From a virus (lineage: Duplodnaviria; Heunggongvirae; Uroviricota; Caudoviricetes): DNA of 27,323 nucleotides. Below, one piece after another: positions 1,369 through 27,323 of the stretch (position 1 is the stretch's first letter; the number at the start of each line of letters is the position of its first letter). Under the pieces are notes generated by a model. That model had not been told where the DNA came from. It was given only the letters and a program-made list of their open reading frames with translations, and made no database searches. Made by a program: the position numbers and the translations under genes. Where the stretch lies: positions 1-27,323 of the IMG/VR virus record IMGVR_UViG_2537561979_000007, one strand, 5' to 3'.

Positions 1369-1444
1369 GCCGATATAGCTCAGTTGGTAGAGCAGCGCAT
1401 TCGTAATGCGAAGGTCGTAGGTTCGACTCCTATTATCGGCACCA
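1369..1444 (+). tRNA. thrW: tRNA-Thr (anticodon CGU), 76 nt ending in CCA
   Basis: GCCGATATAGCTCAGTTGGTAGAGCAGCGCATTCGTAATGCG...GGTTCGACTCCTATTATCGGCACCA read directly; cloverleaf with CGT in the anticodon loop and a GGTTCGA T-arm. Confidence 0.95.
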
Positions 1445-1458
1445 TTTAAATCAATAAG

Positions 1459-2622
1459 TTACACATCATTAGTACCTTCCTTATTTTTTGACTGGGACAA
1501 ATTTGGGACCGATGGGTTCAGGATCGAGTCTATTTGCTGTGCGTGTTCGGTAAGGTGATTAGGTGCAAGGTGAGCATATCGACGAACCATTTCGATAGAC
1601 TCCCAGCCTCCCATTTCCTGTAACACTGACAACGGGACTCCGGCTTGAACCAGCCAACTTGCCCAGGTGTGTCTCAAGTCGTGAAATCTGAAATCATCAA
1701 TACCAGCCCGTCTCAGCGCCGCTTTCCAGGCTGTGTTTGCGTCATACCGCATCTTCCTTACTGTTGGCGCTTTCGTTCCGTCTGGTTTGGTACAGCTTTC
1801 CTTGTACACAAATACCCAACGGTGATGATTCCCGATTTGTTTTTTCAATACGCGACATGCAGTATCATTCAGCGCAACGCCAATTGCGCGGTTTGATTTA
1901 CTCTCTTCCGGGTTTATCCATGCCACCCGGCGCTGCATATCTATTTGTTGCCATTCAAGGTTGATGATGTTCGAGCGTCTTAAGCCTGTTGCCAGTGCAA
2001 ATTCAACAACAGACTTTAATGGCTCCGGACATTCATCAATCAGCCTTTGTGCTTCATGGGGCTCCAGCCAGCGGATCCGTTTATTCTTTGGTTGAGGCAC
2101 TTTAATAATTGGTGCCTTATCCAGCATTTTCCATTCACGCTCTGCGGCTCTTAGTAGGGCCTTTATAAATGAAAGATGCGTAGCCTTCGTTGCAACGGAC
2201 GCTGGTTTTGGCGTGTATCCTGGAACAGGTTTCCCTTTTTTTCTGCATGCTTCTGCCCTGAGTTTCCAGTTTTCCTCATGACGCCGGTTCGTCATTTTCT
2301 GCATTGCTGAATAAATTTTTGATTCAGTAATGTCTCTTAGTTGCATTCCTGCGAAATGTTGAAGCCAGAATCCGATCCGGCTTTTGTCATCGTCCAGTGA
2401 TTTTTTATGTGCTTTCTCTTCAAGCCACCTGACACACGCTTCCTCGAACGTTATATCAGGTATTTCACCAAGTTTGCTGACCCGCCATGCTTCAGCCTTT
2501 AGCTTGTCATGGAGTTCTGTCGCCTGCCTTTTGTCCTTTGTTCCAAGAGACTGTTTAAATCTTTTACCGTTCGGCAATGTGAAACTGGCGTACCATATTT
2601 CACCTCTGCGGAAGAGTGACAT
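1459..2622 (-). CDS. int: Phage tyrosine integrase (387 aa)
   Basis: C-terminal HDLRHTWAS...RRYAHL catalytic region typical of tyrosine recombinases; N-terminal arm-binding-like [14 protein letters not shown]; sits next to the tRNA. Confidence 0.9.
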
Positions 2623-6459: not shown

Positions 6460-6483
6460 AGCGTCCTGTAGGGCGCTTTTTTG
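6460..6483 (+). terminator. Intrinsic terminator after the 5896..6417 gene
   Basis: Hairpin AGCGTCCTGTAGGGCGCT followed by TTTTTT. Confidence 0.5.
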
Positions 6484-6655
6484 TTGCTAACGAATCATCC
6501 TGGACTTCATATGCCCCAGGCGGCTACTTCGTGGGCGTCCTGCCTGTTCGTTTTTGACATTTACTGACCGCTTACGACACATGCACCGTGCACCGTGTTG
6601 CAACCAGATTTTGTTGTAATCCTGTAGTTGGTCTGGAACAAAAGATAAAATTAAA

Positions 6656-6692
6656 TTGCGAGATATGCAAGTGGTGTTTGCGAGATATGCAA
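6656..6692. promoter_or_regulatory. Putative OL operators: two copies of TTGCGAGATATGCAA (6656-6670, 6678-6692)
   Basis: Two identical 15-bp sites with inverted TTGC/GCAA ends, 22 bp centre to centre, same architecture as the sites between cI and cro; TTGCAT -35-like hexamer on the minus strand overlaps them. Confidence 0.5.
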
Positions 6693-6746
6693 AATGATGG
6701 GTAATAAAAAGCCACCTTTCAGTGGCCGATGGATGGGATATTGAGG

Positions 6747-7439
6747 TTAATTATGTCTCTTAAGGGTTTGCGACTGACTGATTAAGACCTTTCCAAAGAC
6801 CATGAATCGGTGTTCGTTTTCGCTAGTAATTCCCCATTCACGGTAAATCTGGTTATCAGAAATCACCAGCAGTTTGTCAGGAATCATTTGAAGTCTTTTA
6901 ACGTATATTTTGTCATCAAAACCAAAGACATATATACCATCACCATCAAACTGATTGATGCTGACATCAACGAAGATGAGATCTCCTGGCTCAATGGTTG
7001 GACACATACTGTCCCCACGAACGTTGATAACTTTGATGTGATTGGCCGGTCGTCCGCCGAACATTGATACAGCATTATCAGTTCTGTATTCGATGGCATG
7101 AATCACATCAATGACATCACCGCCCTGGATAAGGCCATTTCCCGCACTGGCACTGATATCCAGCATTTCAATACGGAACACATCCTTCACCTGCGCAACA
7201 TCCTCATTATTACTGTTTTTATATACAGTATTACTTTTGAGGGCAGAGGTAAAGAGATCAGCAATATCAACACCTAAGCTCTTGGCAATATTACTCAGTG
7301 TTTGTTCGGTAAATTGTTTTTGCTTACCCGTTTCTAAGCGCGAGATGTTCGCCGCATCTACTCCTATTGCTTCAGCGAGATCGGCGATTTTCATGTTCTT
7401 CGCTTGGCGAAGTTGTCTGACTCGGTTTCCTATGTTCAT
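6747..7439 (-). CDS. CI-like repressor: N-terminal HTH plus C-terminal S24 (LexA-like) peptidase domain, 230 aa
   Basis: HTH (MKIADLAEAIGVDAANISRLETG); S24 motifs GDSMCPTI (Ser) and KRLQ (Lys); divergent from a cro-like gene with operators between. Confidence 0.88.
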   Translation of the reverse strand: MNIGNRVRQLRQAKNMKIADLAEAIGVDAANISRLETGKQKQFTEQTLSNIAKSLGVDIADLFTSALKSNTVYKNSNNEDVAQVKDVFRIEMLDISASAGNGLIQGGDVIDVIHAIEYRTDNAVSMFGGRPANHIKVINVRGDSMCPTIEPGDLIFVDVSINQFDGDGIYVFGFDDKIYVKRLQMIPDKLLVISDNQIYREWGITSENEHRFMVFGKVLISQSQTLKRHN

Positions 7440-7459
7440 GCGTTTATTACATTTCTTTA

Positions 7460-7522
7460 TTGCGTGATAAGCAAATCAACTTGCGCAAAATAATTGCGTG
7501 AAATAACATGCATAACGCGCAA
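7460..7522. promoter_or_regulatory. Putative OR operator cluster (TTGCGTGATAAGCAA, TTGCGCAA, TTGCGTG...CGCGCAA) with PR/PRM
   Basis: Repeated TTGCG/CGCAA half-sites in the 97-bp cI-cro intergenic region; same half-site as the OL copies. Confidence 0.5.
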
Positions 7523-7536
7523 TATTTGGAGGGTAT

Positions 7537-7797
7537 ATGCAATCACCATTACGAAATGTGCGTAAGGCGCATGGTTTCACTTTGCAGCATGTTGCTGCGG
7601 GTGTTCAAGTCAATCCAGCGACATTGAGTCGTATTGAGAGGCTGGAGCAGATTCCATCTATCGAGCTTGCAGAACGTTTAGCCAATTTTTTTAAGGGTGA
7701 AGTCAGCGAAATGCAGATTCTTTATCCGGCACGTTTTCAATCTAGCCAAAACCAGAATGGGTTTAAACCACAGGAACAGGAGGTGAACCGTGGGTAA
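7537..7797 (+). CDS. Cro-like HTH regulator (86 aa)
   Basis: GGAGGG SD then ATG; HTH-like segment FTLQHVAAGVQVNPATLSRIE; divergent from cI. Confidence 0.72.
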   Translation: MQSPLRNVRKAHGFTLQHVAAGVQVNPATLSRIERLEQIPSIELAERLANFFKGEVSEMQILYPARFQSSQNQNGFKPQEQEVNRG

Positions 7798-8347
7798 GCA
7801 TCACTGGAAAGTAGAAAAACAGCCTGAGTGGTACGTGAAAGCTGTCAGAAAAACTATCGCAGCGTTGCCGGGTGGTTACGCTGAAGCAGCTGACTGGCTG
7901 GATGTAACAGAGAACGCATTATTTAACCGCCTTCGTGCCGATGGCGATCAGATTTTCCCGCTGGGATGGGCAATGATTTTGCAACGTGCTGGTGGAACTC
8001 ACTTCATTGCTGACGCTGTGGCGCAGTCTGCAAATGGCGTCTTTGTGTCTCTTCCTGACGTCGAGGATGTGGACAACGCCGATATTAACCAGCGTCTGCT
8101 GGAAGTCATTGAACAGATCGGCAGTTATTCAAAACAGATTCGTTCAGCAATCGAAGACGGTGTAGTGGAACCGCATGAGAAGACAGCAATTAACGACGAG
8201 CTGTATCTCTCAATTTCGAAGCTGCAGGAGCATGCAGCACTTGTCTACAAAATTTTTTGCATTTCAGAAAGTAATGACGCCCGCGAGTGTGCAGCTCCGG
8301 GCGTCGTGGCGTCGATTGCTTCTGGTTGTGGAGAAACTAACGCATGA
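7790..8347 (+). CDS. CII-like / YdaT-family regulatory protein (185 aa)
   Basis: GTG start 6 nt after AGGAGG, overlapping the cro stop; family assignment is by position and vague recollection only. Confidence 0.55.
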
Positions 8348-8682
8348 ACAGTTTAACAACACACTACCGTCGCTCGCAACTGATTGCGCTTCCTGTACCG
8401 GGTGGAAAAGCGAAGGTGGAATATTGCTATGCAGTGAATGTACCAGGTGACAGGGAAATTGTAACCCACAGCTTTGCAGAGTGGGCTGTGGGTGATTTCA
8501 ACCGGCAGAAGGAGACAGTCCTTTGCGACAAGTTAACCGCTGGTTCAAAGATCACTACGGAGTGCCCGTCAGAGTCATTCGTTGGGAGCCGGAAACACAA
8601 CGGGTTATCTACCTCCGCGAAGGTTATGAGCATGAATGCTTCAGTCCGCTCGAACAGTTTCGTCGTAAATTCAGGGAAATAG
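8344..8682 (+). CDS. Hypothetical protein (112 aa); 3' half overlapped by a more protein-like alternate frame ending at 8702
   Basis: ATGA overlap with the upstream gene; C-terminal half is low-complexity, while frame 0 (8496-8702) encodes ...[37 protein letters not shown].... Confidence 0.4.
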
Positions 8683-8691
8683 AGGTCGGTC

Positions 8692-9633
8692 ATGAGCACT
8701 AAATTAACCGGCTATGTATGGGATGGTTGCGCTGCATCAGGCATGAAGTTATCCAGCGTGGCAATTATGGCCCGCCTGGCTGATTTCAGTAATGACGAAG
8801 GTGTGTGCTGGCCATCAATTGAAACCATTGCCCGTCAGATTGGCGCGGGGATGAGTACCGTTAGAACGGCTATCGCACGGCTGGAAGCAGAAGGCTGGTT
8901 AACGCGTAAGGCGCGTCGCCAGGGTAACCGCAATGCGTCGAATGTTTATCAGCTTAACGTTGCGAAGCTTCAGGCAGCGGCATTTTCTCAACTGTCAGAT
9001 TCTGACCCGTCAAAATCTGACGCATCAAAATCTGACCCGTCAAAATTTGATGCGTCGAAATCTGGCAAAAAAGCGGGTTTTCACCCGTCAGAATCTGGCG
9101 GGGATCCGTCAGTAAAATCAAAACATGATCCGTCAGATAAAAAAACTTCTCGTCCGGACGCTTCGCAACCGGACACGCAGACGGCTGAACAGGAGTTTTT
9201 AACTCGCCATCCTGATGCGGTTGTATTCAGCCCTAAAAAGCGCCAGTGGGGAACGCAGGATGATTTGACCTGCGCACAGTGGCTCTGGAAAAAAATCATC
9301 GCCCTGTACGAGCAGGCCGCCGAATGTGACGGCGAGGTGGTTCGTCCCAAAGAACCGAACTGGACAGCCTGGGCAAACGAAATTCGCCTGATGTGTGTGC
9401 AGGATGGTCGTACTCACAAACAAATCTGCGAGATGTACAGCCGCGTCAGCCGCGATCCGTTCTGGTGCCGTAACGTGCTCAGCCCGTCGAAGCTGCGGGA
9501 AAAATGGGATGAGCTTTCCCTGCGCTTATCGCCGTCCGTCAGCACGTACACCGAAAAACGCGAAGACCCGTACTTCAAATCCAGTTACGACAACGTGGAC
9601 TACAGCCAGATCCCGGCAGGATTCAGGGGGTGA
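8692..9633 (+). CDS. Replication initiator (lambda O-like), N-terminal HTH, 313 aa
   Basis: GAGGT SD; HTH-like N-terminus (SSVAIMARLADFSNDEGVCWPSIETIARQIGAGMSTVRTAIARLEAEGWL); iteron-like DNA repeats inside the linker-coding region. Confidence 0.68.
   Translation: MSTKLTGYVWDGCAASGMKLSSVAIMARLADFSNDEGVCWPSIETIARQIGAGMSTVRTAIARLEAEGWLTRKARRQGNRNASNVYQLNVAKLQAAAFSQLSDSDPSKSDASKSDPSKFDASKSGKKAGFHPSESGGDPSVKSKHDPSDKKTSRPDASQPDTQTAEQEFLTRHPDAVVFSPKKRQWGTQDDLTCAQWLWKKIIALYEQAAECDGEVVRPKEPNWTAWANEIRLMCVQDGRTHKQICEMYSRVSRDPFWCRNVLSPSKLREKWDELSLRLSPSVSTYTEKREDPYFKSSYDNVDYSQIPAGFRG
8994..9135. repeat. Iteron-like direct repeats (CCGTCAAAATCTGA variants, about 12-14 bp period) inside the O-like gene; putative origin
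   Basis: At least six tandem, degenerate copies read directly (ccgtcaaaatctgac / gcatcaaaatctgac / ccgtcaaaatttgat / gcgtcgaaatctggc / ccgtcagaatctggc / ccgtcagtaaaatca). Confidence 0.5.
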
Positions 9634-9635
9634 GC

Positions 9636-9965
9636 ATGAGTCTTTTGAATGACGTTCAGAAATTCATTGAAGCCCATCCGGGGTGTACTTCCGGAGACAT
9701 TGCGGATGCTTTTGCAGGTTACTCACGGCAGCGCGTTCTGCAGTCAGCAAGCAAGTTACGTCAGAGTGGGCGTGTGGCTCACCGTTGTGAAGGAGATACA
9801 CGCAGACATTTCCCGCGCCTGACTGAGAGAGCGCAGGAGCCGGAACCACAACCAGTTCGTGAAACCAGACCTGTGCGCAATTTCTATGTCGGCACTAACG
9901 ATCCCCGGGTGATTTTGTGCCTGACTCGCCAGGCGGAAAAACTGGTCAGGGAGATGGCGGCATGA
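9636..9965 (+). CDS. Hypothetical small protein, possibly winged-helix DNA-binding (109 aa)
   Basis: ATG at 9636 after AGGGGG; ATGA overlap with the next gene; no confident family. Confidence 0.5.
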   Translation: MSLLNDVQKFIEAHPGCTSGDIADAFAGYSRQRVLQSASKLRQSGRVAHRCEGDTRRHFPRLTERAQEPEPQPVRETRPVRNFYVGTNDPRVILCLTRQAEKLVREMAA

Positions 9966-10288
9966 CGACGTTAACTCAATGCCAGCAGCAGGTGCTGGAT
10001 ATGCTGATTTCTTACCAGAAAGAACGTGGCTTCCCGCCAACCAATCAGGAGGTGGCAACCATGCTGGGATACCGTTCAGTGAATGCAGCGGTGGAGCATC
10101 TTCGCGCACTGGAGAAAAAAGGCGTCATCACGATAAAGCGTGGCGTGGCCCGGGGGATCACGCTTCATACCGCGGTGAAGGACGACGACAGCGAGGCGGT
10201 CGGGATCATCCGCGCACTGCTTGCCGGTGAGGAGAACGCCAGGTTGCGTGCAGTCCACTGGTTACATGAGAGAGGCCTGAAAGTATGA
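9962..10288 (+). CDS. LexA N-terminal DNA-binding-domain homolog lacking the peptidase domain (108 aa)
   Basis: LTQCQQQVLDMLISYQKERGFPPTNQEVATMLGYRSVNAAVEHLRALEKKGVITIKRGVARGITL aligns by eye with the LexA N-terminal winged helix; no Ser/Lys S24 domain follows. Confidence 0.68.
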   Translation: MTTLTQCQQQVLDMLISYQKERGFPPTNQEVATMLGYRSVNAAVEHLRALEKKGVITIKRGVARGITLHTAVKDDDSEAVGIIRALLAGEENARLRAVHWLHERGLKV

Positions 10289-10674
10289 AGCTAATCCTGC
10301 CTTTCCCGCCCAGCGTGAACACGTACTGGCGACACCCCAACAAAGGGGCATTTTCTGGTAAGAGCCTGATAAGCGCGGCGGGGCGAAAATTTCAGAGCGC
10401 GGCGTGCGCAGCAATAGTTGAGCAGTTACGTCGTCTGCCAAAACCAACGTCGGCACCTGCTTCAGTGGAGATCGTGTTGTTTCCTCCAGATAACCGGATC
10501 CGCGATCTGGACAACTATAACAAGGCGCTGTTTGACGCCCTGACCCACGCGGGTGTGTGGGAAGACGACAGACAGGTGAAAAGAATGCTGGTTGAGTGGG
10601 GACCGGTTATCCCGAAAGGGAAGGTCGAGATCACTATCAGTAAGTATGAGAAACCGGCGGGTGCAGCCGCCTGA
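10285..10674 (+). CDS. rusA: Holliday-junction resolvase RusA (129 aa)
   Basis: RusA signature LPFPPSVNTYWRH ... RDLDNYNKALFDALTHAGVWEDD. Confidence 0.85.
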   Translation: MKLILPFPPSVNTYWRHPNKGAFSGKSLISAAGRKFQSAACAAIVEQLRRLPKPTSAPASVEIVLFPPDNRIRDLDNYNKALFDALTHAGVWEDDRQVKRMLVEWGPVIPKGKVEITISKYEKPAGAAA

Positions 10675-10693
10675 TTAAGAGGAGAAACGAAGT

Positions 10694-11491
10694 ATGAATA
10701 ATCTGATGGTCATTGATGGTATTGAAGTTCGTCGTGATGCTTATGGGCGTTACAGCCTGAACGATCTGCACAGGGCTGCCGGTTCTCTGGATAAGCATAA
10801 GCCTGCATTCTGGCTCCGCAATGAGCAAACTGAACGTTTAATAAGCGAGTTGCAGATTTGCAACTCGGTCAATATAGAGCCAGTTAACGTTATTCGTGGC
10901 GGAAATAACCAGGGGACGTATGTCTGCAAAGAACTGGTGTATGCCTATGCAATGTGGATCAGCCCGTCATTCCATCTGAAGGTGATCCGTATTTTCGATA
11001 TGGTAACCAGCACACCGGAAAAATTATCCGGGCAGGCTGCAGACAAGATGCAGGCTGGCGTGATCCTGCTGGACTTTATGCGCCGGGAATTAAACCTGTC
11101 TAACTCATCAGTGCTTGGAGCCTGTCAGAAGCTTCAGGAGGCTGTTGGCTTACCGAATCTGGCACCGCGCTATGCCATTGATGCTCCTGCTGACGCGCCT
11201 GATGGCTCAAGTCGCCCCACGCTGTCGCTGAGTGCACTGCTGAAACAGTATGGTATCCGCCTGACGGCTAATCAGGCATATCACCAGATGGCGAAGCTGG
11301 GGATCGTTGAACAACGTGAACGATACAGCCGTACCGCGATTAATAACATCAAAAAATTCTGGTCGCTGACGGCGAAAGGCTGCATGTTCGGCAAGAACAT
11401 CACCAGTCCGGCAAATCCGCGCGAGACGCAGCCACACTTCTTCGAATCCCGATTCCCTGAGCTGTTAAAGCTGCTCGATACCGTTCATTGA
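10694..11491 (+). CDS. KilA-N domain protein (265 aa)
   Basis: AGGAG SD; N-terminal KilA-N-like region (DLHRAAGSLDKHKPAFWLRNEQT...GTYVCKELVYAYAMWISPSFHLKVIRIFD). Confidence 0.75.
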   Translation: MNNLMVIDGIEVRRDAYGRYSLNDLHRAAGSLDKHKPAFWLRNEQTERLISELQICNSVNIEPVNVIRGGNNQGTYVCKELVYAYAMWISPSFHLKVIRIFDMVTSTPEKLSGQAADKMQAGVILLDFMRRELNLSNSSVLGACQKLQEAVGLPNLAPRYAIDAPADAPDGSSRPTLSLSALLKQYGIRLTANQAYHQMAKLGIVEQRERYSRTAINNIKKFWSLTAKGCMFGKNITSPANPRETQPHFFESRFPELLKLLDTVH

Positions 11492-12873: not shown

Positions 12874-12893
12874 AGGGCATTTCTGCCCTTTTT
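12874..12893. terminator. Bidirectional intrinsic terminator between Q and the convergent cassette
   Basis: AGGGCA-TTTC-TGCCCT hairpin flanked by AAAAA on one side and TTTTT on the other. Confidence 0.5.
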
Positions 12894-13335
12894 AAATGTG
12901 GGGGAGTATCCAGTTTACTTTTCTCCATGTAAAGGCAAAAGTTATTACTGAAATGATAAGAAGAGATAAAGATTCGATAATTAAAATAAATTCTATTTTT
13001 TCTCCATGTAACAATGTCTTTTCATTGGCAAACATTGCTATCAAAGCAATAACGCATGCCGTAATTAAAGATGCACCTGCGGTTAATAGATTTACAATAA
13101 TAACTTGAAGTATGTTGTTGTTTTTTAATGCTTTTATTATTCCATTTGAGTTTTCGCTAGCAGCACTAAAAATTGATATTGTGGCTAAAATAAAACCAAA
13201 TAAAATACCGGATACAGTTGAAATAACCCCGGAGGCTGTAAGTATGTCAGCATGCCCCATCTGAGGGATATACCTCAGTAGGAACAAGGTGCAAAAAACA
13301 CTTACAATCAGGTTTCTTAAGTATTTCAATAACAT
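12892..13335 (-). CDS. Small integral membrane protein, about four predicted TM helices (147 aa); second gene of the AT-rich cassette
   Basis: Four long hydrophobic stretches; AAGAAGG SD; separated by 3 nt from the upstream gene; visibly AT-rich. Confidence 0.62.
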   Translation of the reverse strand: MLLKYLRNLIVSVFCTLFLLRYIPQMGHADILTASGVISTVSGILFGFILATISIFSAASENSNGIIKALKNNNILQVIIVNLLTAGASLITACVIALIAMFANEKTLLHGEKIEFILIIESLSLLIISVITFAFTWRKVNWILPHI

Positions 13336-13338
13336 ATC

Positions 13339-14279
13339 CTATACCTTCTTTTTGCTGATATCGTATTGCTTAAGGTATTCATTGTTATCAATTTTAGCAG
13401 AAATCATGGCTTGCAGAACATCACTATCAGTGCCATAACCATTAACGGTATATATGTTTTTTTCTGAAATGAGTACCTGATCAAGAAGACTTTGTTCAAC
13501 GGTATTTTTGGGCTGTGTTACTGCCGCTTTTTTTACAATTCCCGGCATTTTTTCAAGGAGTTCTTTAATACCATCCTTAACGAGATCTGATAAATAACCT
13601 TTGACTTTTACTCTCCCTGATGCACGTCCCCTTAGATTTAACTTGAGACGTGTTCCACCCAGCCCTACCATCATATTTACCAGTTCCTTAGAAAATGAAC
13701 TATTTAGCTGGTAATTTGTTGCATCAAAGTTCCTGGGAGCAGCCAGGACAATATCACAACTTCTCAAAGTACTTCCTGTTTCAAGTAGCTCTTTGACGCT
13801 CTCTTTTTTCCAGATGGCTTGGAATGAAAAGTTATTTCCAGGATTACCACTCTGGCTGTAAAGCAGATAAGCTAAATCCGATTCTTTCGGCCCAAGATGA
13901 TTTTGAGTTAATATTAAAATATCACTATCGTAATAATATAAAAAATAGGTTCTTTCGACTATGTATTTTTTATCATCTAGTGGTATGTTGTGCTCATTCC
14001 AGTATTCATCACCAATATAAGGAAGGAGATACTCTTCTCGTGAGCATGACATGTAGCCGAAGAAATATTTAGCTTTTGTATCTTTATTTATAAAAGCTAT
14101 TTTTAACTTTTTATTTCTATAGATGGTATCAAAATGATTATTCGTAACGGTTACGCAAGTATTATACAGATTTTCAATTGCTTGCTTAGCAACTGAATGG
14201 CTGCGGATAGTCCCAGAACTGCTGGTGTAAAAACCAATTTTAAGTTTTTTTGTTTCTTTGATTGCGCAATAGTAGCCAT
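13339..14279 (-). CDS. Hypothetical cytoplasmic protein, first gene of the AT-rich cassette; apparent frameshift at an A7 tract near the 5' end (313 aa if the tract were A8)
   Basis: ATG at 14277-14279 with AAGG SD opens an 11-codon frame that runs into an A7 run (plus-strand T7 at 14245-14251); the 237-aa body (track ORF 13339..14052) is open in the adjacent frame all the way up to that run. Confidence 0.5.
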
Positions 14280-16377: not shown

Positions 16378-16854
16378 ATGCAGGTACTAAATTCCCAGCG
16401 TAAAGCTTTCCTCGATATGGTGGCATGGTCAGAAGGAACGGATAACGGGCGACAACCGACACGTAACCACGGTTATGATGTTATTGTCGGTGGAGAACTC
16501 TTCACTGATTACTCCGATCACCCTCGCAAACTTGTCAAGCTAAACTCCAAACTCAAATCAACAGCCGCCGGACGTTACCAGCTTCTTTCCCGTTGGTGGG
16601 ATGCTTACCGTAAACAGCTTGGTTTGAAAGACTTCTCCCCCAAAAGCCAGGACGCAGTGGCATTGCAGCAGATTAAAGAGCGTGGCGCTTTACCTATGAT
16701 TGATCGCGGTGATATCCGTCAGGCTATCGATCGTTGCAGCAATATCTGGGCTTCATTGCCGGGCGCTGGTTATGGTCAGTTCGAGCATAAGGCTGACAGC
16801 CTGATTGCAAAATTCAAAGAAGTTGGCGGAACGGTCAGAGAGATTGAAGTATGA
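16378..16854 (+). CDS. R: Endolysin, lambda R-type lytic transglycosylase (158 aa)
   Basis: Near-identical by recollection to lambda R (QRKAFLDMVAWSEGTDNGRQ...GYDVIVGGELFTDYSDHPRKLV...). Confidence 0.9.
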   Translation: MQVLNSQRKAFLDMVAWSEGTDNGRQPTRNHGYDVIVGGELFTDYSDHPRKLVKLNSKLKSTAAGRYQLLSRWWDAYRKQLGLKDFSPKSQDAVALQQIKERGALPMIDRGDIRQAIDRCSNIWASLPGAGYGQFEHKADSLIAKFKEVGGTVREIEV

Positions 16855-17433: not shown

Positions 17434-19812
17434 ATGGCAGCAGTAAAAATCTCAGGTGTGCTGAAAGATGGTGCGGGAAAACCAATACAGAACTGCACTA
17501 TTCAACTGAAGGCAAAGCGTAACAGCACCACGGTACTGGTGAACACGGTGGCCTCTGAAAATCCGGATGAAGCCGGGCGTTACAGCATGGATGTTGAGCA
17601 TGGCCAGTACAGCGTCATCCTGCTGGTTGAAGGTTTTCCGCCTTCACATGCCGGGACCATTACCGTCTATGAAGGCTCCAGACCAGGTACGCTGAATGAT
17701 TTTCTCGGTGCCATGACGGAAGAGGATGTCATGCCGGAGGCATTGCGTCGTTTTGAGGCAATGGTGGAAGAAGTGGCACGCAACGCCGAAGCCGCCTCTC
17801 AGAGCGCAGCGGCGGCAAAGAAATCCGAAACTGCAGCGGCATCATCGAAGAACGCGGCGAAAACCTCAGAAACGAATGCAGCTAATAGTGCACAGGCGGC
17901 AGCGACCTCAAAGACTGCATCGGCAAACTCCGCGACAGCAGCCAAAAAATCAGAAACCAACGCGAAAAACAGTGAGACAGCCGCAAAGACGAGCGAAACC
18001 AACGCAAAGTCCAGCCAGACGGCAGCGAAAACCAGCGAAACGAATGCTAAAGCCAGTGAAACTGCGGCAAAAAACAGCCAGGCTGCAGCAGCTGAAAGCG
18101 AGAGCGCGGCAGCCGGTTCTGCGACTTCAGCAGCTGGATCAGCAACTGCTGCGGCTAACAGCCAGAAAGCTGCGAAGACGAGTGAAACTAACGCAAAGTC
18201 CAGCCAGACGGCAGCGAAGACCAGCGAAACGAATGCCAAAGCCAGTGAAACTGCGGCGAAAAGCAGTCAGGATGCAGCGGCCCAAAGCGAGAGTGCCGCA
18301 GCCAGTTCTGCAAGCGCGGCGGCTGCTTCTGCCACTGCATCAGCCAACAGTCAAAAAGCTGCAAAAACCAGTGAAACCAACGCAAAGGCGAGCGAGACTG
18401 CGGCGGCTAACTCGGCGAAAGCATCCGCTGCAAGCCAGACGGCTGCAAAAGCAAGTGAAGACGCAGCCAGAGAGTATGCAAGCCAGGCTGCGGAGCCGTA
18501 TAAACAAGTTTTGCAGCCGCTTCCCGATGTGTGGATACCGTTTAACGATTCACTGGATATGATTACGGGGTTTTCGCCGTCATATAAAAAGATTGTTATT
18601 GGTGATGATGAAATAACGATGCCTGGCGATAAGGTTGTAAAGTTTAAACGCGCATCGAAAGCAACCTATATTAATAAATCTGGTGTGCTGACAGAGGCTG
18701 CCATTGACGAGCCACGATTTGAACGTGATGGCCTGCTTATTGAGGGGCAAAGAACTAATCTTCTGCTTAATTCAACAAATCCATCTAAATGGAATAAGTC
18801 AGGCAATCTGGAACTCACAGAAATATCCACGGATTCTTTTAATTTTACTTATGGGAGATTTACTGTAAAAGATACTCTTATTGGTCAAACAAGTGCGATT
18901 AGTATCGTAACGGTTTCTGGCAGTAAAGGATTTGATGTCACAGGTGATGAAAAATATGTGACCATTTCATGCCGTGTCAGAAGTGATGTTGAAAATATAA
19001 GGTGTCGTTTAAGATTTGAACATCATGATGGTTCTACTTACACTTTTTTGGGAGATGCTTACCTCAATTTATCAACACTTGTAATTGATAAAACTGGTGG
19101 TGCAGCAAATCGTATTATTGCAAAGGCTGTAAAAGATGAGGCTACTGGTTGGATTTTCTATCAGGCTACAATTACTGCACTAGATACAGAGAGCATGATT
19201 GGTGCGATGGTTCAATACGCTCCAGTAAAAGGTTCAGACACAGCATCTGGAGACTATCTGGATATCGCAACTCCACAAGTGGAAGGTGGATCAAGTGCTT
19301 CGTCATTTATTGTAACTGATACAACTGCAAGCACCCGCGCAAGCGATATAGTTACAGTTCCAATTAAGAATAATCTTTATAGTCTTCCTTTTACAGTTCT
19401 GGTTGAGGTTCATAAAAACTGGAATAAAACACCAAATGCAGCACCGCGTGTTTTTGATACCGGCGGTCATCAAACCGGAGCGGCTATTATTCTTAGCTTC
19501 GGTTCTTCAGCAGATTACGACGGATTTCCTTATTGCGATATTGGAGGAGCTAACAGACGGGTAAACGAAAACGCATCGCTTGAAAAAATGGTTATGGGGA
19601 TGCGTGTAAAGTCAGATCAGTCTACGTGCTCAGTAAGTAACGGGCGTATATCCAGCGAAACAAAAACCACATGGTCTTATATTCAGAACACCGCAATTAT
19701 CCGTATTGGAGGCCAGACTACAGCCGGGTTACGTCATTTATTTGGTCATGTCAGGAATTTCAGAATATGGCACAAGGCATTGACTGATGCTCAGGTGGGG
19801 GAGTTAATCTAA
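17434..19812 (+). CDS. stf: Side tail fibre protein Stf: lambda-like N-terminus, Ala/Ser/Thr-rich repeat shaft, divergent AT-rich C-terminal receptor-binding domain (possibly LamG/ConA-like)
   Basis: N-terminal MAAVKISGVLKDGAGKPIQNCTIQLKA... resembles lambda Stf; start taken at ATG 17434 after GGAGTG; C-terminal third is visibly AT-rich. Confidence 0.82.
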   Translation: MAAVKISGVLKDGAGKPIQNCTIQLKAKRNSTTVLVNTVASENPDEAGRYSMDVEHGQYSVILLVEGFPPSHAGTITVYEGSRPGTLNDFLGAMTEEDVMPEALRRFEAMVEEVARNAEAASQSAAAAKKSETAAASSKNAAKTSETNAANSAQAAATSKTASANSATAAKKSETNAKNSETAAKTSETNAKSSQTAAKTSETNAKASETAAKNSQAAAAESESAAAGSATSAAGSATAAANSQKAAKTSETNAKSSQTAAKTSETNAKASETAAKSSQDAAAQSESAAASSASAAAASATASANSQKAAKTSETNAKASETAAANSAKASAASQTAAKASEDAAREYASQAAEPYKQVLQPLPDVWIPFNDSLDMITGFSPSYKKIVIGDDEITMPGDKVVKFKRASKATYINKSGVLTEAAIDEPRFERDGLLIEGQRTNLLLNSTNPSKWNKSGNLELTEISTDSFNFTYGRFTVKDTLIGQTSAISIVTVSGSKGFDVTGDEKYVTISCRVRSDVENIRCRLRFEHHDGSTYTFLGDAYLNLSTLVIDKTGGAANRIIAKAVKDEATGWIFYQATITALDTESMIGAMVQYAPVKGSDTASGDYLDIATPQVEGGSSASSFIVTDTTASTRASDIVTVPIKNNLYSLPFTVLVEVHKNWNKTPNAAPRVFDTGGHQTGAAIILSFGSSADYDGFPYCDIGGANRRVNENASLEKMVMGMRVKSDQSTCSVSNGRISSETKTTWSYIQNTAIIRIGGQTTAGLRHLFGHVRNFRIWHKALTDAQVGELI
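17998..18375 (+). repeat. In-frame tandem duplication (2 x 189 bp) in the stf shaft region
   Basis: aacgcaaagtccagccagacggcagcgaa... recurs 189 bp apart (from about 18001 and 18190), encoding two 63-aa TNAKSSQTAAKTSETNAKASETAAK... units. Confidence 0.6.
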
Positions 19813-21479: not shown

Positions 21480-21952
21480 AAAAGGGAGTTGTAAACGCAA
21501 CACAGGAAGAGGTGCCGCTTCAGGTTGCTGGGAATAAGCGCCGGGGTCTGTTAAATCATGCCAATACGCTAATCGAGCCAGATATTGAGTAGCCTGCAGT
21601 CCGTCATGGCGTAATCGTTTTGTGATATGCTGCACGCCGTATGCAAGGAGCATGATTGCGCTCGACTGGCGAGCGCTCGATAGTGCTACTATTGAATGAT
21701 TGCTAGTCTAGGCGGATTGTACTTAAGTAATATGACGGTTCAAGGCGTTTAATCTGAAACCAGCCACATATTAGCCTTTTCAAACATTTCCTGAACACTC
21801 AGGCTTACCTGCTCTTTCTCGTGCTTGCTGGCATTTGTGTTGAGCGCCGGTGAATACTCTTACTCAACACTCCCAGAATTATATCTGTTGCATCAGGCAG
21901 ACCATCAAAATTCTTTTGTCATAAACGAGTTCCACGAATAATGTGCCCTATG

Positions 21953-22024: not shown

Positions 22025-22819
22025 TTATAGTAAAGATGATATGCCAGCAAGAAATGGAGTAAATACTGTAATGTGTGCAGATACATTATTAATAAAGTCC
22101 TTATATGCTTCTTTAAAACAGCCGCTTTGGTGACTGGCTGCCAGTGCCTGTACATTATCTATAAGGTGTGATTCTGTCGCGCCATCAAAGTTTTTCGATT
22201 TTATTGCCTCAATCATTTCATTAAATATTGTGGGCTCATTATAATTTGTCGTAGTAGTTGCCGTAGCACCTGAAGAATGTATATTGATACTAGAACCGGA
22301 AATTCCACTGACATGAATATTAGCTTCTTGTTTCATAAGAGGTAAACCATTCTCCATCTTGTATAGGTCACTATCTTGTAGCATCTGCAATGTGATACGT
22401 ACTGCTGCTAATAGTTGTTCTTGCTTTTTGAATAAGGAACACATCTGTTCTACAGACCAAAGCTGAACTGCATTTTCTTCGCATGTTTTTTTAGCTATAT
22501 TTGGCACTTCCGAATCATAATTACCATAAACCCAAGTGTCCTTGAATCTTTCGATAATAGCTGTCAACGTTGGAAATTTACTGAAATCACTATTAATGGA
22601 TAGTAACTCATCAGACATATAAAGTGCCATATCTCTGCCTTCCGCATATACTGCTTCCACTTTATTCCGTGTTGCAAATGGTATTCTTGAAATAAAACGA
22701 AAATCCTCTTCATTTTTTAAATGGACCCAGTCTTTATCAAAACGGCTAAATTCGTACCCTATCGATAACAGTCTACTTATATATTGGGCTACTGATTCCA
22801 AATCTTTTCTTATGTCCAA
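22025..22819 (-). CDS. Hypothetical protein, AT-rich orphan (264 aa from TTG 22819; 271 aa from TTG 22840)
   Basis: Long ORF with no in-frame ATG for about 70 codons; AGGAGT lies 6 nt before TTG at 22817-22819; terminator-like palindrome downstream; no family recognised. Confidence 0.55.
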   Translation of the reverse strand: MDIRKDLESVAQYISRLLSIGYEFSRFDKDWVHLKNEEDFRFISRIPFATRNKVEAVYAEGRDMALYMSDELLSINSDFSKFPTLTAIIERFKDTWVYGNYDSEVPNIAKKTCEENAVQLWSVEQMCSLFKKQEQLLAAVRITLQMLQDSDLYKMENGLPLMKQEANIHVSGISGSSINIHSSGATATTTTNYNEPTIFNEMIEAIKSKNFDGATESHLIDNVQALAASHQSGCFKEAYKDFINNVSAHITVFTPFLAGISSLL

Positions 22820-23289
22820 AGTATTACTCCTGCTTGTCAACCGAATCTGTCGGTTTTCTTACAAATGGCTTGTCTTTAAAGTTCTGATTAAAAAGACGCT
22901 AACCAATACTTAATAATACATGAAAAAAAAGCGCATAAGCTGGCTTTTTTATCAATCGGGAACTGCGGCCCCTTTGCGTATCCTTTTTTGTTTCTTCACC
23001 GTCTGGTCGGTGTTCTGCTGAGACTGCTAATTTCCTGTTTTTGCTAGTGCTGTCTTGGCACTGTCCATCGTGATTGGTGGACTGGTGAAGTTGAAACCGC
23101 AGACACGTCGTATGCAAGAACGTGCTGCGGCTGGCTGGTGAACTTCCGATAGTGCGAGTATTGAATGATTTACAGCCGTTATTGATTTTACATATTTTTT
23201 GTATGAAAGGATTAGCGCCTCCTCCCACCGATCCTCCATGACTTTACGCCACTGTCTCTAGGACTGCTATGTGCTAGGAACGGACATAG

Positions 23290-23652
23290 AAAACACGATG
23301 TTATAAGATTAGGTGCATCTATCCGATAGTATTCATTGGACGTGATGATCGTACTAAGCCGATCTCAAAGGAAAGCATTAATCAGGTAATTGAGCTATTA
23401 GGATAAAAAGGAAGGCTGACGGGGCATGGTTTTCGTCACACAATGAGTACCATTCTGCACGAAGAAGGATTCAACTCTGCATGTTTCGAAACACAACTTG
23501 CACATGTGGATAAGAACGCTATTCTCGGGGCTTACAATCATGCACAGTATTTGGAAGGGAGACAACAGATGATGCAGTGGTATAGTGAATACATAGATAG
23601 CTTGTCTAGAAATAGACTTCCGCAATTTTTTCTTCAAAAAAAGGCAGTATGA
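23290..23652 (+). pseudogene. C-terminal remnant of a P4-type tyrosine integrase (5'-truncated, in-frame stop at 23404)
   Basis: ...GRDDRTKPISKESINQVIELLG*KGRLTGHGFRHTMSTILHEEGFNSACFETQLAHVDKNAILGAYNHAQYLEGRQQMMQWY matches the C-terminal catalytic region of P4-type integrases by recollection (HGFRHT box, AYNHA Tyr box); about 280 N-terminal residues absent. Confidence 0.65.
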
Positions 23653-23714
23653 ACAATAAATCTAGTTGATGCATACAAAGGTTTATTGTCGATAGCAAGA
23701 GGAGCGTCAAAATC

Positions 23715-26700
23715 ATGAATGTACAGAAAACCAAATTTTCATCTAAAGAATTTCTAAGGCGCCGTCGCCCTGAAAAATTTTCTGATTCAACAATCAGAGA
23801 GACTGGTACTTTAGACAGAGTTGTACTGGAACACTTCCTCTCTACGCTAAATACAAGAAATCAAGAACTACAATTCGAAGATTTTGCAAAAAAAATATGT
23901 GAAAAAATAATTTGCCCTAATCTCCTTGAACAAACTGGCCCTGTAGCAGGGGGGGATGGTAAAACTGACACACAAACATTCCCTGTTTCAGAACAGAATA
24001 AGCTTCTTTGGTTCGAAGGCGTTAATGAAGCATCAAATAGAGAACGCTGGGCCTTTGCGGTAAGTACACGTAAAGACTGGAAGAAAAAATGCCATGAAGA
24101 TGTACTTAAGATAAAAGAAACAGAACGTGGGTATGCTAAAGTATTTTGCGTAACGAACCAGTCTGCAAAGTCCAATATTCGTTCAGAGGTTGAGGATACA
24201 CTAAAAACAAAAACTGGAATAGATGTTCGTATATTAGATATTAATTGGCTATTAGATCAAATTTACAAAAATAATTTTGAGCAATTGGCCATTGATTCAT
24301 TGTCAGTTCCAACGCAATATAAAAGAGAAGTTATTTTTGGAGAAAATGATTATAAAAAGCATAAAAAATATGAAGAGTTAACCGAGTATATTAGAGAGAA
24401 AATAAACCCTGCTGAAATTTCATATGAACAGGTGGATATTTTTTTAGAAATTGCAGAGTTAAGCGCTGAACTTGAGAAACCACTAATTGAAACACAAGGT
24501 CTATTTGAAAGAGCTATAAAAATATCAAAGAAATTCGGGACTAATCAACAATTGCTAGATGCGTATTATCAATATGCCTGGAAGTCTCATTTTTGGATGG
24601 AAGATTTTAATCTCTTTGAAGAAAATCTTCAATTTGCATATGAAAGTATTGCATCATCAACTAATTCCTCAAAATGGGAGAAAGTTTTAAATTTAGTAAC
24701 CGTTCATAAAAGTTATATTAGACTTAACAACGCAACATCTACAATCGATATTGAGAATATTGAACGTAACATGCTCGCTAAACTAGATGAGATAGCTGAC
24801 GATGAATCACGTCCCAGTAATGCACTCACAGCGAGAACTCACAAAGCTATTTATAAATTGACAACGTTTTCAGATGTAGAAGATGCTTCGGTTGTATTTG
24901 AAGAGTTACATGAAATTTTTAAAAATAGTGGAAATTTAATAGGCTATTCCTTTGAGAAGAACTTCCAACTTTTGAACGAACTGGATGACATTTTTTTCGA
25001 GGTAGATGCATATGAAAATTTATTAGACTATATGACTGAGCAATCTGCTGTTAGAGGTGGTGAAGTTAAAGGGGCATTATTAAATCTACGAAGAGGTATA
25101 AAGAGGATTCAAAATGGTCACCCTTATCAGGCAATCAAGTATTTAGGAAAATCATTTATACCACTCTATAAAGAGGAATCACGAGATAAATTTATATTAG
25201 CATTAAAAGCTATTGCTTATGCTTACGAATCCATTGGGTTGCTATGGAGTTCACGTTCATGCTTGCTTCTATCCGCTTCTTTGATTACAGATAACTACTG
25301 GAAGTATGATGAGATATCATTAAAGCAGGCTGAGATTTATTATAGTTTATGCCTGGCAGAAATAAAACTAGGGAAATTAGCACATGCTCTTTTATGGTAT
25401 GAACTGTTTTTAATAATTAACCAAAATATCAGTGATAGCTCGTTCGGCGATAAAGAAAATCAGCAAGTTGATTTTTACATAAGTCAACTCATTTTGAACA
25501 CTGACCTAAATGGAATAAATCGACAGAGTAATATTCCCGATGAACTCGATAGATTAGGTCTTTTTGTATCATCTGGATGTCTTAAATATGCTTTAGGTTA
25601 TATTGAAAATTTTGAACATGAGTACGAAGTTACTGCCGATAAAGATCATAATGATTTCTTGCAAAAAATACGTGACTTTGATGCTGGATTCAATAGTAAA
25701 GGCATAAAAGATAACTATGATAAACGAGGAATATATACATCTTTTATTTTTGGATGCACTATAGAAATTAACTTTCCGAATCGGTCACCATTTATAGAGT
25801 TTTCAACTAGTATCTTAGCGCTTTTAGAGAGTGCTTTTGCAACTTGTACGATTGATAACATCCATCTGAAAGAAGCATTTTTAATTATTGAAGTAATAGC
25901 AGATGATGAAGATGACTTCTCCTTATCACATGAAATAAATAGCAATAATGGAAAACTAAACCTTACTATAAATTGCAATGGTTTTGAAACAAGTGCATTT
26001 AGAGTCGATGTTCAACAAAAAATTACTAATGAATTCAAGAAAATAGTATTTGATCTTCTCCCTGAGTTATTTTTTATAAAAAATACAGAATACATTGAAA
26101 GAATGATATTCGAAGATGCTGCATTTGACAGAGCAATTAGTTTCGGTGCCTGTATCAAAGCTATTGAAAATGTTCTTGGAAATGATATTGATCAACAAAT
26201 TAAGAAAATTTATTCCACCAGTACTGAAAAGAAAACTTACCCTCTTTTAAGAGATAAACCCTGGGATAGTGAATTTCCAAAAGTGTTGGAGATCGAGGAT
26301 GTAAATGTTCCAACACCTGGTAAAGGAATAATGCCTGAAGAGGAACTTAATTCCGAAAATATAACGCATAAAGATTATTCAATACAAAGTCTAATCAAAC
26401 CTCGTCTATGGGATAGAACACGCTGGCAAGGAGTAGGCTTCGCTCAATTAAAATCGTGTTATCCAGGGTTATATCTATTATTTAAACACCCCGATATAGG
26501 TGAGGATATTTTTAAAGATCTTATATCATCAGTAGGCTTGGTAGATAGTAAAGCCAGATTACGGGTTTGTATTGTCAAGGGTATTTCAGTTAAAAACCCA
26601 AATCATTATAGAGTACTGATATCTGAAAATATGATGACAACGCCATTAACTAAAAGAATGACAATGATCAGTAGAATTAATACGATGACTCCTGATAGTA

Positions 26701-26966
26701 ACGTCAATTTAGAAAGATTTCTTGCTGCGTATCAGGCCTGTGGAAAATTCTATCTTGGATGTGATGCGATGTTAAAAAATATTGTTCCTGAGCATCCACA
26801 AAGAGATAGTTTAGGGATAGAAATGAGTACGTTAGATGTTAGGTGGGCTTGGGAAATTGGGTTAAATGATGTTGATTGTATTGGGGTTAATTTAAAAGAA
26901 GATGACCCCTATATTCCTAGTGATGTAGCTGAGATCCCATTATTGCAATTGATAAACAGTAAATAA
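23715..26966 (+). CDS. Large orphan protein (1083 aa): N-terminal Mrr-like PD-(D/E)xK nuclease-type motifs plus about 900-aa predominantly helical C-terminal region
   Basis: Uninterrupted 3.25-kb ORF, GAGGAG upstream, visibly AT-rich; N-terminal GGDGKTD ... AFAVSTRK ... KVFCVTNQS resembles the Mrr catalytic pattern (GDGGIDG ... QCK ... GVFITTSSF); no Walker A/B motifs. Confidence 0.8.
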   Translation: MNVQKTKFSSKEFLRRRRPEKFSDSTIRETGTLDRVVLEHFLSTLNTRNQELQFEDFAKKICEKIICPNLLEQTGPVAGGDGKTDTQTFPVSEQNKLLWFEGVNEASNRERWAFAVSTRKDWKKKCHEDVLKIKETERGYAKVFCVTNQSAKSNIRSEVEDTLKTKTGIDVRILDINWLLDQIYKNNFEQLAIDSLSVPTQYKREVIFGENDYKKHKKYEELTEYIREKINPAEISYEQVDIFLEIAELSAELEKPLIETQGLFERAIKISKKFGTNQQLLDAYYQYAWKSHFWMEDFNLFEENLQFAYESIASSTNSSKWEKVLNLVTVHKSYIRLNNATSTIDIENIERNMLAKLDEIADDESRPSNALTARTHKAIYKLTTFSDVEDASVVFEELHEIFKNSGNLIGYSFEKNFQLLNELDDIFFEVDAYENLLDYMTEQSAVRGGEVKGALLNLRRGIKRIQNGHPYQAIKYLGKSFIPLYKEESRDKFILALKAIAYAYESIGLLWSSRSCLLLSASLITDNYWKYDEISLKQAEIYYSLCLAEIKLGKLAHALLWYELFLIINQNISDSSFGDKENQQVDFYISQLILNTDLNGINRQSNIPDELDRLGLFVSSGCLKYALGYIENFEHEYEVTADKDHNDFLQKIRDFDAGFNSKGIKDNYDKRGIYTSFIFGCTIEINFPNRSPFIEFSTSILALLESAFATCTIDNIHLKEAFLIIEVIADDEDDFSLSHEINSNNGKLNLTINCNGFETSAFRVDVQQKITNEFKKIVFDLLPELFFIKNTEYIERMIFEDAAFDRAISFGACIKAIENVLGNDIDQQIKKIYSTSTEKKTYPLLRDKPWDSEFPKVLEIEDVNVPTPGKGIMPEEELNSENITHKDYSIQSLIKPRLWDRTRWQGVGFAQLKSCYPGLYLLFKHPDIGEDIFKDLISSVGLVDSKARLRVCIVKGISVKNPNHYRVLISENMMTTPLTKRMTMISRINTMTPDSNVNLERFLAAYQACGKFYLGCDAMLKNIVPEHPQRDSLGIEMSTLDVRWAWEIGLNDVDCIGVNLKEDDPYIPSDVAEIPLLQLINSK

Positions 26967-27170
26967 AATGTTTGCCAAGAATACCGCCTCTTAAGGGGCG
27001 GGTTCTAAACAAATCTTTAGCCTCTTCACTAATGCTATTAGTGTTATCGCTTTTACAATAAATTGCCGACCTGCCCCCATTGCTTAACACACATCGAAGT
27101 AAGTATGCATTCCGAACTTCCGCCCCTCGCTCATAACAGACATTCACTACAGTTATGGTAGAAGGTATGT

Positions 27171-27323
27171 ATGCTGATTGGGGAAAGTGTGAAAGAAAAG
27201 AAGACTGCTGCGCTGTTTGTCGTCACGTTTATCTTCATTGGCTATGCAAGTCATAATACAAGGTGGGACAAAACTGAGACACATAAGGCCTCACAATGGC
27301 TTGCAAGGCTTTACATGTTTTGA
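27171..27323 (+). CDS. Possible small membrane protein (50 aa), ending at the window edge
   Basis: ATG 7 nt after GAAGG; one hydrophobic helix (AALFVVTFIFIGYA); stop codon is the last three bases of the window; short ORF, low confidence. Confidence 0.3.
   Translation: MLIGESVKEKKTAALFVVTFIFIGYASHNTRWDKTETHKASQWLARLYMF

Follow-up and report, generated by a model that had tools for sequence, protein, structure and literature searches.

The b region of lambdoid phages, situated between the tail-fibre genes and attP/attR, houses "moron" cargo, examples being sitABCD in phage 21 and ea47, ea31, and ea59 in lambda. Integrases of the P4/CP4-57 type, which belong to tRNA-associated islands and satellites, are built from three domains, Arm-DNA-bind_3, Phage_int_M, and Phage_integrase (PRK09692). 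Defence hotspots of P2-like phages and P4-like satellites are the subject of Rousset et al. 2022 (PMC9122126). Among proteins compared with the cargo gene discussed below, Avs4 unites a nuclease with a STAND NTPase and a TPR sensor, while Upx joins an N-terminal sensor to a C-terminal PD-(D/E)xK nuclease and has no NTPase (PMC13601566).

The stretch of DNA analysed here, hereafter the window, comprises 27,323 nucleotides of a tailed-phage record (IMGVR_UViG_2537561979_000007) and holds a resident thrW prophage together with a cassette whose parts are listed in Table 1. The cassette resembles lambdoid moron cargo in its conserved b-region flanks, its foreign composition, its own terminator hairpin, and the variable content of its slot, but differs in carrying the integrase stub of another element and in being absent from every sequenced free phage (among deposited phage genomes, none carries ORF1083). 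The presence of an integrase stub within the cargo reveals an origin in a tRNA-targeting islet. This stub matches the last third of the P4/CP4-57-type family, but it holds only 110 of 407 codons, is interrupted by an internal TAA, and lacks both the first catalytic Arg and the DNA-binding domains. As in the hotspots treated by Rousset et al. (PMC9122126), the slot is fixed in position and variable in content, with sister elements holding restriction-modification (RM), AbiTii, or TrlF-family ATPase genes; unlike in those elements, it is formed here by the b region of lambdoid thrW prophages; its occupant, ORF1083, is a candidate defence gene. We consider it likely, at a probability of about 0.8, that the stub is an inert relic travelling with the cargo gene, and that the cassette is b-region cargo of the prophage, enclosed by the thrW/thrW' repeats.

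Table 1. Features of the thrW prophage, the cassette, and its flanks, in window coordinates.
Feature	Position	Strand	Remarks
thrW, tRNA-Thr(CGT), attL side of the prophage	1369..1444	+	ARAGORN
Intact integrase of the lambdoid prophage, adjoining thrW	1459..2622	-	Pfam Phage_integrase, full profile, E = 3.3e-48
Truncated lom	16980-17369		matches only profile positions 75-199
Left flank, last phage DNA before the cassette	23097..23277	.	87% identical to lambda/HK629/HK630
Imported cassette (filler, stub, ORF1083, terminator hairpin, ~150-nt tail)	23271..27146	+	~3.9 kb
Filler between phage DNA and stub	23271..23319	.	in Kluyvera; absent from the Photorhabdus integrase and lambdoid phages
Integrase pseudogene stub	23320..23652	+	final 110 of the 407 codons of a P4-like integrase; TAA 23404-23406
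Promoter-like site GAGACA-16-TATAGT with upstream TG	23559..23586	+	inside the stub; ORF1083 starts ~130 nt further on; weak lead
ORF1083	23715..26966	+	1083 aa; candidate defence gene
ORF1083 regions (residues)			PD-(D/E)xK-fold N-terminal, 1-207; TPR-like middle, 210-655; alpha/beta C-terminal, 660-1083
GC-rich hairpin CCGCCTCTTAAGGGGCGG	26984..27001	.	just past the ORF1083 stop; terminator-like; kept in all related loci
Right flank, lambdoid b-region end	27127..27323	+	91.5% identical to phage 21 positions 26952-27151

The stub is confirmed, far beyond chance, as a genuine dead C-terminal remnant of a P4-like integrase of the Arm-DNA-bind_3 type. The translation of the frame ending at 23652 contains YPIVFIGRDDRTKPISKESINQVIELLG, a stop, and then KGRLTGHGFRHTMSTILHEEGFNSACFETQLAHVDKNAILGAYNHAQYLEGRQQMMQWYSEYIDSLSRNRLPQFFLQKKAV before the final stop; within the latter part, KGRLTGHGFRHTMSTILHEEGF follows directly on the first stop, LAHVDKNAILGAYNHAQYLEGR lies further along, and KKAV closes the frame. 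It matches Pfam Phage_integrase over profile positions 95-170 of 172 only (E = 5.2e-10) and NCBIfam NF007246/PRK09692, the P4/CP4-57-like integrase, over positions 305-395 of 413 (E = 1.4e-19), in agreement with the initial annotation, which had recognised a C-terminal P4-family fragment with an in-frame TAA at 23404. Alignment with the intact 407-aa integrase of Photorhabdus places the stub at residues ~297-407 with 87% amino-acid identity. The TAA at 23404-23406 stands in place of TAT (Tyr) in the intact relatives and interrupts the frame. Detectable integrase homology begins at 23320 rather than 23290, and the DNA to the left of ~23277 is all of lambdoid phage origin; the C-terminal remnant comprises 110 codons, and the sequence at 23271-23319 is unrelated filler. 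About 72% of the integrase is missing at the N-terminal side, and filler and lambdoid sequence occupy the DNA where that part would lie, just as the loss of the N-terminal two-thirds to unrelated sequence had been described.

Aligned with intact relatives, the stub retains the box II motif HGFRH, the histidine of LAH, and the invariant AYNH Tyr, which we take to be the nucleophile. Absent from the stub is the first catalytic Arg (TGVRTxELR motif), which the intact proteins carry upstream of the point, near residue 297 of 407, where the alignment begins. The Arm-DNA-bind_3 and Phage_int_M domains, both DNA-binding, were not found in the window fragment and are present in the intact integrases of Photorhabdus, Kluyvera, Rahnella, and the satellite of strain 6409. 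The stub cannot recombine DNA. The remnant itself is ordinary and is already annotated in RefSeq as an integrase pseudogene; PGAP calls the identical stretch in strains 6409 and EC21Z-063 a [quoted passage not shown]. Against the Photorhabdus integrase, dN/dS of the stub is 0.12 (109 codons), and that of ORF1083 is 0.14; the stub value bears no sign of long neutral decay, being dominated by the functional period and uninformative on age.

The window runs from proA through thrW, the intact prophage integrase, and lambdoid early and lysis genes to the tail-fibre genes. The same arrangement of thrW and integrase occurs in 960 complete E. coli genomes, and the right-end repeat of strains 6409, WP4-S18-ESBL-08, and TUM10008 consists of the last 45 nt of thrW. 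The prophage in the window is defective: directly after the endolysin (16378-16854) come a lom gene that has lost its N-terminal part and the tail-fibre genes. It has no terminase, head, or tail-shaft genes, of which strain 6409 has the full set at the same locus; lacking head and tail-shaft genes, the window prophage cannot now move the cassette.

Lambdoid DNA borders the cassette on both sides. The match of the left flank to lambda, HK629, and HK630 spans about 23097-23287, b-region sequence that in those phages has ea47 on one side and ea31 on the other, and the same sequence is found downstream of the tail-fibre genes in e14-like and ST131-type lambdoid prophages. The right flank, which also matches many lambda hybrids, carries a 50-aa small membrane-protein ORF (27171-27323); its counterpart in phage 21 is CPT_21_32, the last gene of the b region, ~180 nt before icd'/attP/int. 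In WP4-S18-ESBL-08, TUM10008, and 6409, this right-flank segment precedes the 45-nt thrW copy. The thrW prophage of WP4-S18-ESBL-08 has the same integrase and terminates with 45 nt that duplicate the thrW 3' end, the segment homologous to window 27138-27323 sitting ~70 nt upstream of this duplicate. Strain 6409, which is 99.5% identical to the window over 23097-27323, has its attR-type 45-nt thrW copy (locus L001, 12294-12338) 67 nt past the window-equivalent end. From thrW to thrW', the 6409 element measures 46.4 kb, cassette included, and its lambdoid gene set is complete (terminase, portal, capsid, tail, J, lom, stf, tfa).

Since the window ends before attR, the position of that site is taken from strains 99.5% identical over 23097-27323. 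Within the window, a search for thrW-derived att copies (at most 3 mismatches in 25 nt) matched only thrW itself; no copy lies between the tail-fibre genes and the stub, and the only partial copy in 6409 follows the cassette and the lambdoid flank. With both flanks lambdoid and the 6409 att copy located after the cassette, the stub and ORF1083 lie inside the prophage b region, within what would be its attachment repeats, and in the genome of the window the prophage probably runs past both to a thrW copy just outside. This arrangement contradicts the initial annotation, which had placed the stub downstream of the prophage as the mark of a second element. A true second tandem thrW element does begin in strain 6409, ~67 nt past the window-equivalent end (L001, 12294-20227). 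It comprises a 45-nt thrW copy, an intact 404-aa P4-like integrase, DUF6387, HTH, antirepressor, and ash-family genes, and a TOPRIM/DUF927 primase, and is a P4-like satellite or PICI-type island. The tandem array proposed for thrW thus does occur in related strains, but the second element of that array opens, with an intact integrase, only past the window end.

The composition of the cassette sets it apart, with a GC content of 34.5% against 47% in the prophage and 54% in the core flank. In a MAFFT alignment, lambdoid identity stops at ~23277 on the left and Kluyvera identity starts at ~23271, so that ~7 nt are shared. On the right, identity to the Kluyvera locus L013 continues to 27146 and lambdoid identity starts at ~27120-27127, giving an overlap of ~23 nt in which the Kluyvera and lambdoid sequences are ~83% similar. 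Beyond the shared block, the Kluyvera flanks have no similarity to the window, and the proposal that these outer flanks are diverged lambdoid DNA was rejected (z = 0.9, -1.2, and 0.3). The junction features and the composition are compatible with short-homology or illegitimate recombination having inserted the block or exchanged it for other DNA. With the lambdoid-like patch of ~23 nt also present at the right end of Kluyvera L013, the transfer may have run from island to phage or from phage to island.

The origin of the stub was traced by scanning one genome per species for homologues of ORF1083. Homologues with 80-98% amino-acid identity were identified in Kluyvera, Rahnella, a Serratia MAG, Snodgrassella, and Photorhabdus. 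Integrase sequence and ORF1083 are linked in six of the seven related loci (five other genera), which upholds the earlier statement that a large gene follows directly downstream; the exception is Snodgrassella (L016), where homology covers the ORF alone, from 23711. In Photorhabdus akhurstii (L017), tRNA-Sec (6467-6561) is followed by the integrase (6715-7938) and, 62 nt after it, by ORF1083 (8001-11252). This 407-aa integrase is intact, with Arm-DNA-bind_3, Phage_int_M, and Phage_integrase domains, and window 23320-27012 shares 93% nucleotide identity with the locus.

Kluyvera has the order thrW, a different intact integrase of 411 aa, the truncated stub, and ORF1083. The truncation point, the filler of ~45 nt, and the TAA are identical there, and no phage is present; nucleotide identity to the Kluyvera thrW islands reaches 97.6-97.7% (L012 over 23265-27116, L013 over 23265-27146). 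Given that the same truncation, filler, and TAA occur in phage-free Kluyvera, the decay predates the presence of the cassette in the phage and was not caused by its integration, which overturns the earlier suggestion that integration of the lambdoid phage had eroded the integrase. Rahnella and Serratia carry a shorter stub (from 23492) after another intact integrase, beside tRNA-Arg(TCT). Downstream of the Kluyvera, Rahnella, Serratia, and Photorhabdus cassettes, no repeats of tRNA 3' ends were found within 8 kb. Among 5,426 complete E. coli genomes, no intact integrase copy is closer than ~81% at the nucleotide level, and the closest sampled intact E. coli copy (~81%, MSB1_9D) adjoins tRNA-Sec. 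The ancestral integrase lineage is accordingly linked to tRNA-Sec rather than to thrW; the view that the island was originally adjacent to thrW is not supported, the closest intact relatives being at tRNA-Sec and no thrW att copy separating phage from stub.

As a separate observation, the intact P4-like integrases at L013 (6214-7449), L014 (6503-7711), and L017 (6715-7938) share 59-63% mutual identity and adjoin Thr, Arg, and Sec tRNA genes, respectively, each upstream of the same cargo gene. In two of these three loci, a stub of the Photorhabdus-type integrase intervenes before the cargo gene, a pattern that suggests integrase replacement around conserved cargo.

Under the reading of the stub as a hitch-hiking relic, the ancestral unit would have been a minimal tRNA-targeting islet composed of a P4-like integrase, ORF1083, and a terminator, which survives intact at tRNA-Sec of Photorhabdus akhurstii. 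In another lineage, the integrase would have lost its first ~296 codons and gained a TAT-to-TAA stop, and the already dead stub would then have moved with ORF1083 as one block of ~3.9 kb. This block would have entered the non-essential b region of a thrW lambdoid prophage, between the tail-fibre genes and attR, joined to the phage DNA at short patches of similarity, of ~7 nt at its left end and ~23 nt at its right end. The stub would serve at most as spacer or promoter sequence for ORF1083, and ORF1083 would be the functional part, with a predicted nuclease fold and TPR but no NTPase, putatively acting as a single-protein defence expressed from the lysogen. What the comparisons establish directly is what the stub is and where it ends, that both flanks are lambdoid, where att lies in a nearly identical strain, that Kluyvera has the same truncation, and that Photorhabdus keeps the intact parent; the direction and mechanism of capture, any promoter role, and the defence function are what we infer.

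An account close to the initial annotation, in which an older thrW island of integrase and cargo was displaced by the integrating lambdoid phage and its integrase eroded in place to leave a tandem array, is very improbable. Related strains do have tandem arrays at thrW, in which a P4-like satellite whose integrase is intact comes after a prophage, Kluyvera does hold the stub and ORF1083 in a thrW island, and integrase followed by cargo is the ancestral order. Nevertheless, lambdoid b-region DNA follows the cassette and a thrW copy comes only afterwards, no att remnant separates phage from stub, truncation and TAA are already found in phage-free Kluyvera, the nearest intact relatives are at tRNA-Sec, and at least two additional deletions or rearrangements would be required. 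Aberrant excision offers another route. In lambda-gal-type capture, DNA from the integrase-proximal side is placed into the b region; a phage lodged at the distal att of an integrase-ORF1083 island could in this way have taken ORF1083 with the 3' part of the integrase, creating the truncation. The order predicted by such an event (b-left, integrase C-terminus only, cargo, att, phage integrase) is the order observed, and the left junction does have merely ~7 nt of microhomology. Two features make this route improbable: a stub cut at the identical point and preceded by the identical filler adjoins a different integrase in Kluyvera, so the truncation either came before the phage junction or arose independently of it, and lambdoid DNA at 27127-27323 lies between the cassette and attR, which a simple event would have removed.

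A further question is whether the stub has been kept because it is useful, either through its 3' ~160-330 nt as a promoter or 5' leader of ORF1083 or through a 69-codon ORF (23443-23652) as a small protein. We regard such usefulness as unlikely, though with a real chance of being true. Although their upstream partners differ, Kluyvera, Rahnella, Serratia, and E. coli all retain sequence from the integrase 3' end ahead of ORF1083, and the promoter-like site, with its extended -10, falls in the part of the stub also kept in Rahnella and Serratia (from 23492). However, a promoter consensus scan of the region returned no more sites than expected from shuffled sequence, the Snodgrassella homologue shares the ORF alone, and in E. 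coli E308 the gene is fused to a truncated tail-fibre gene 24 nt before its ATG.

The cassette is found in ~20 of the 5,426 complete E. coli genomes. A left junction at window 23097 is common to 17 carriers, and 13 continue to the end of the window; other carriers display secondary decay, including IS insertions. In EC21Z-063 and E308, a deletion joins window ~27160 to the truncated primase of the downstream satellite. In the O155 strain NWU_3 (L009, 8985-12621), the stub and ORF1083 lie beside mscS, far from proA-thrW, and ORF1083 is split in two; this relocation may reflect either a problem of the assembly or a large rearrangement. At the position of the cassette, sister thrW prophages hold a TrlF-family ATPase or RM with DUF6650/AbiTii, and phage 21 carries sitABCD. 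The b region of thrW lambdoid prophages thus behaves like a variable accessory or defence slot; a literature search returned no description of this slot or of defence in thrW prophages.

Several further features of the window prophage deserve mention. An imperfect 45-nt direct repeat (21657-21701 and 23126-23170, 76% identity) brackets an AT-rich segment of 1.47 kb, in which a 271-aa ORF (22025-22840, minus strand) has as its sole family match a weak one to PADLOC PDC-M14B (E = 0.0017). Because DNA to the left of 23097 is missing from strains such as 6409, this segment looks like a second b-region insert. Between the Q antiterminator and the lysis genes (12892-14052) lie two minus-strand ORFs of 147 and 237 aa that match PHROGs, function not known. 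Sister thrW prophages carry at this position a cytosine methyltransferase and an ATP-dependent nuclease (L005) or a 1050-aa metallophosphoesterase (L027, 22572-25724), which suggests that the Q/lysis interval is a second variable cargo slot. Within the 794-aa tail-fibre gene, arrays repeating every 21 nt and a duplicated stretch of 189 nt (81% identity) at 17849-18459 imply that part of the protein is repetitive and heptad-like. At 8980-9102, within a 313-aa ORF (8692-9633), a 15-nt unit (TCAAAATCTGACNCN) occurs six times; these copies look like replication-origin iterons in a lambda O-like gene. Additionally, a palindromic 15-mer, TTGCGAGATATGCAA, is present in three copies (6656-6692 and 7460-7474) flanking a minus-strand repressor-like gene (6747-7439); these are probably operator sites.

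The uncharacterised gene ORF1083, a predicted nuclease-TPR gene, is the most interesting item at the locus. It had been called an orphan, yet at least 760 homologues exist, of full length (~1085 aa) and 42-56% identity across Gammaproteobacteria, with members at 27-30% identity on plasmids of Agrobacterium, Nostoc, Cohnella, and Cupriavidus. Sequence searches against Pfam, PADLOC, NCBIfam, and PDB gave no usable match, and none was found to Upx in either PADLOC-DB, where Upx is presumably represented, or PDB, which contains the Upx structure 9wuf. A literature search with the RefSeq protein accession of ORF1083 returned no description.

The AlphaFold2 model of ORF1083 (pLDDT 84.6, pTM 0.72) consists of an alpha/beta N-domain, a TPR-like solenoid, and an alpha/beta C-terminal region. 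A fold search with the full-length model retrieved generic TPR matches only; the nuclease fold, a restriction-endonuclease-like alpha/beta core, was seen once the N-terminal domain was modelled separately. E55, D81, D85, K125, and an Mrr-like GGDGKTD loop are invariant in the family, but the third strand of the predicted N-domain has no clear (D/E)xK, no canonical (D/E)xK triad was identified, and the pLDDT of the GGDGKTD loop is below 50. No Walker A motif (GxxxxGK[ST]) was found in ORF1083, a lone loose match at residue 473 lying in a TPR helix and not being conserved. The assignment of ORF1083 as a STAND/Avs protein was rejected, there being no P-loop and no PADLOC or Pfam match. Unlike Avs4, ORF1083 is without the STAND module, and it has no sequence similarity to Avs4 or to Upx, from which it also differs in its reversed domain order. 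By analogy of domains, its nearest functional counterparts appear to be Avs4 and the NTPase-less Upx, with ORF1083 assigned to neither family.

Neighbourhoods of related genes extend this picture. In Vibrio parahaemolyticus, a distant homologue lies between SIR2+DUF87 (SIR2+HerA-like) genes and AbiH, and in Citrobacter another is situated beside TerB/BrxD-like ATPase/helicase genes; in Serratia plymuthica, the gene of this family is a solitary insertion. From the predicted fold and these neighbourhoods, ORF1083 is a plausible candidate anti-phage defence gene. Tentatively, and at somewhat less than even odds, it may found an undescribed, widespread family of single-protein defence, with an Mrr/PD-(D/E)xK-like nuclease, a TPR sensor, a novel C-terminal domain, and no NTPase, that spreads as a cassette with its dead stub between tRNA islets (tRNA-Sec, -Thr, and -Arg, with different integrases) and the lambdoid b region.

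The locus map is corrected by this analysis, with the cassette to be annotated as phage cargo and not as a second island, a change whose own stakes are small. An integrase stub may be a hitch-hiking scar of the origin of the cargo and not necessarily the boundary of an element, which calls for caution in island-calling based on remnants. ORF1083, conserved across several phyla, provides a well-defined and cheap candidate for a new NTPase-less nuclease-TPR immune protein.
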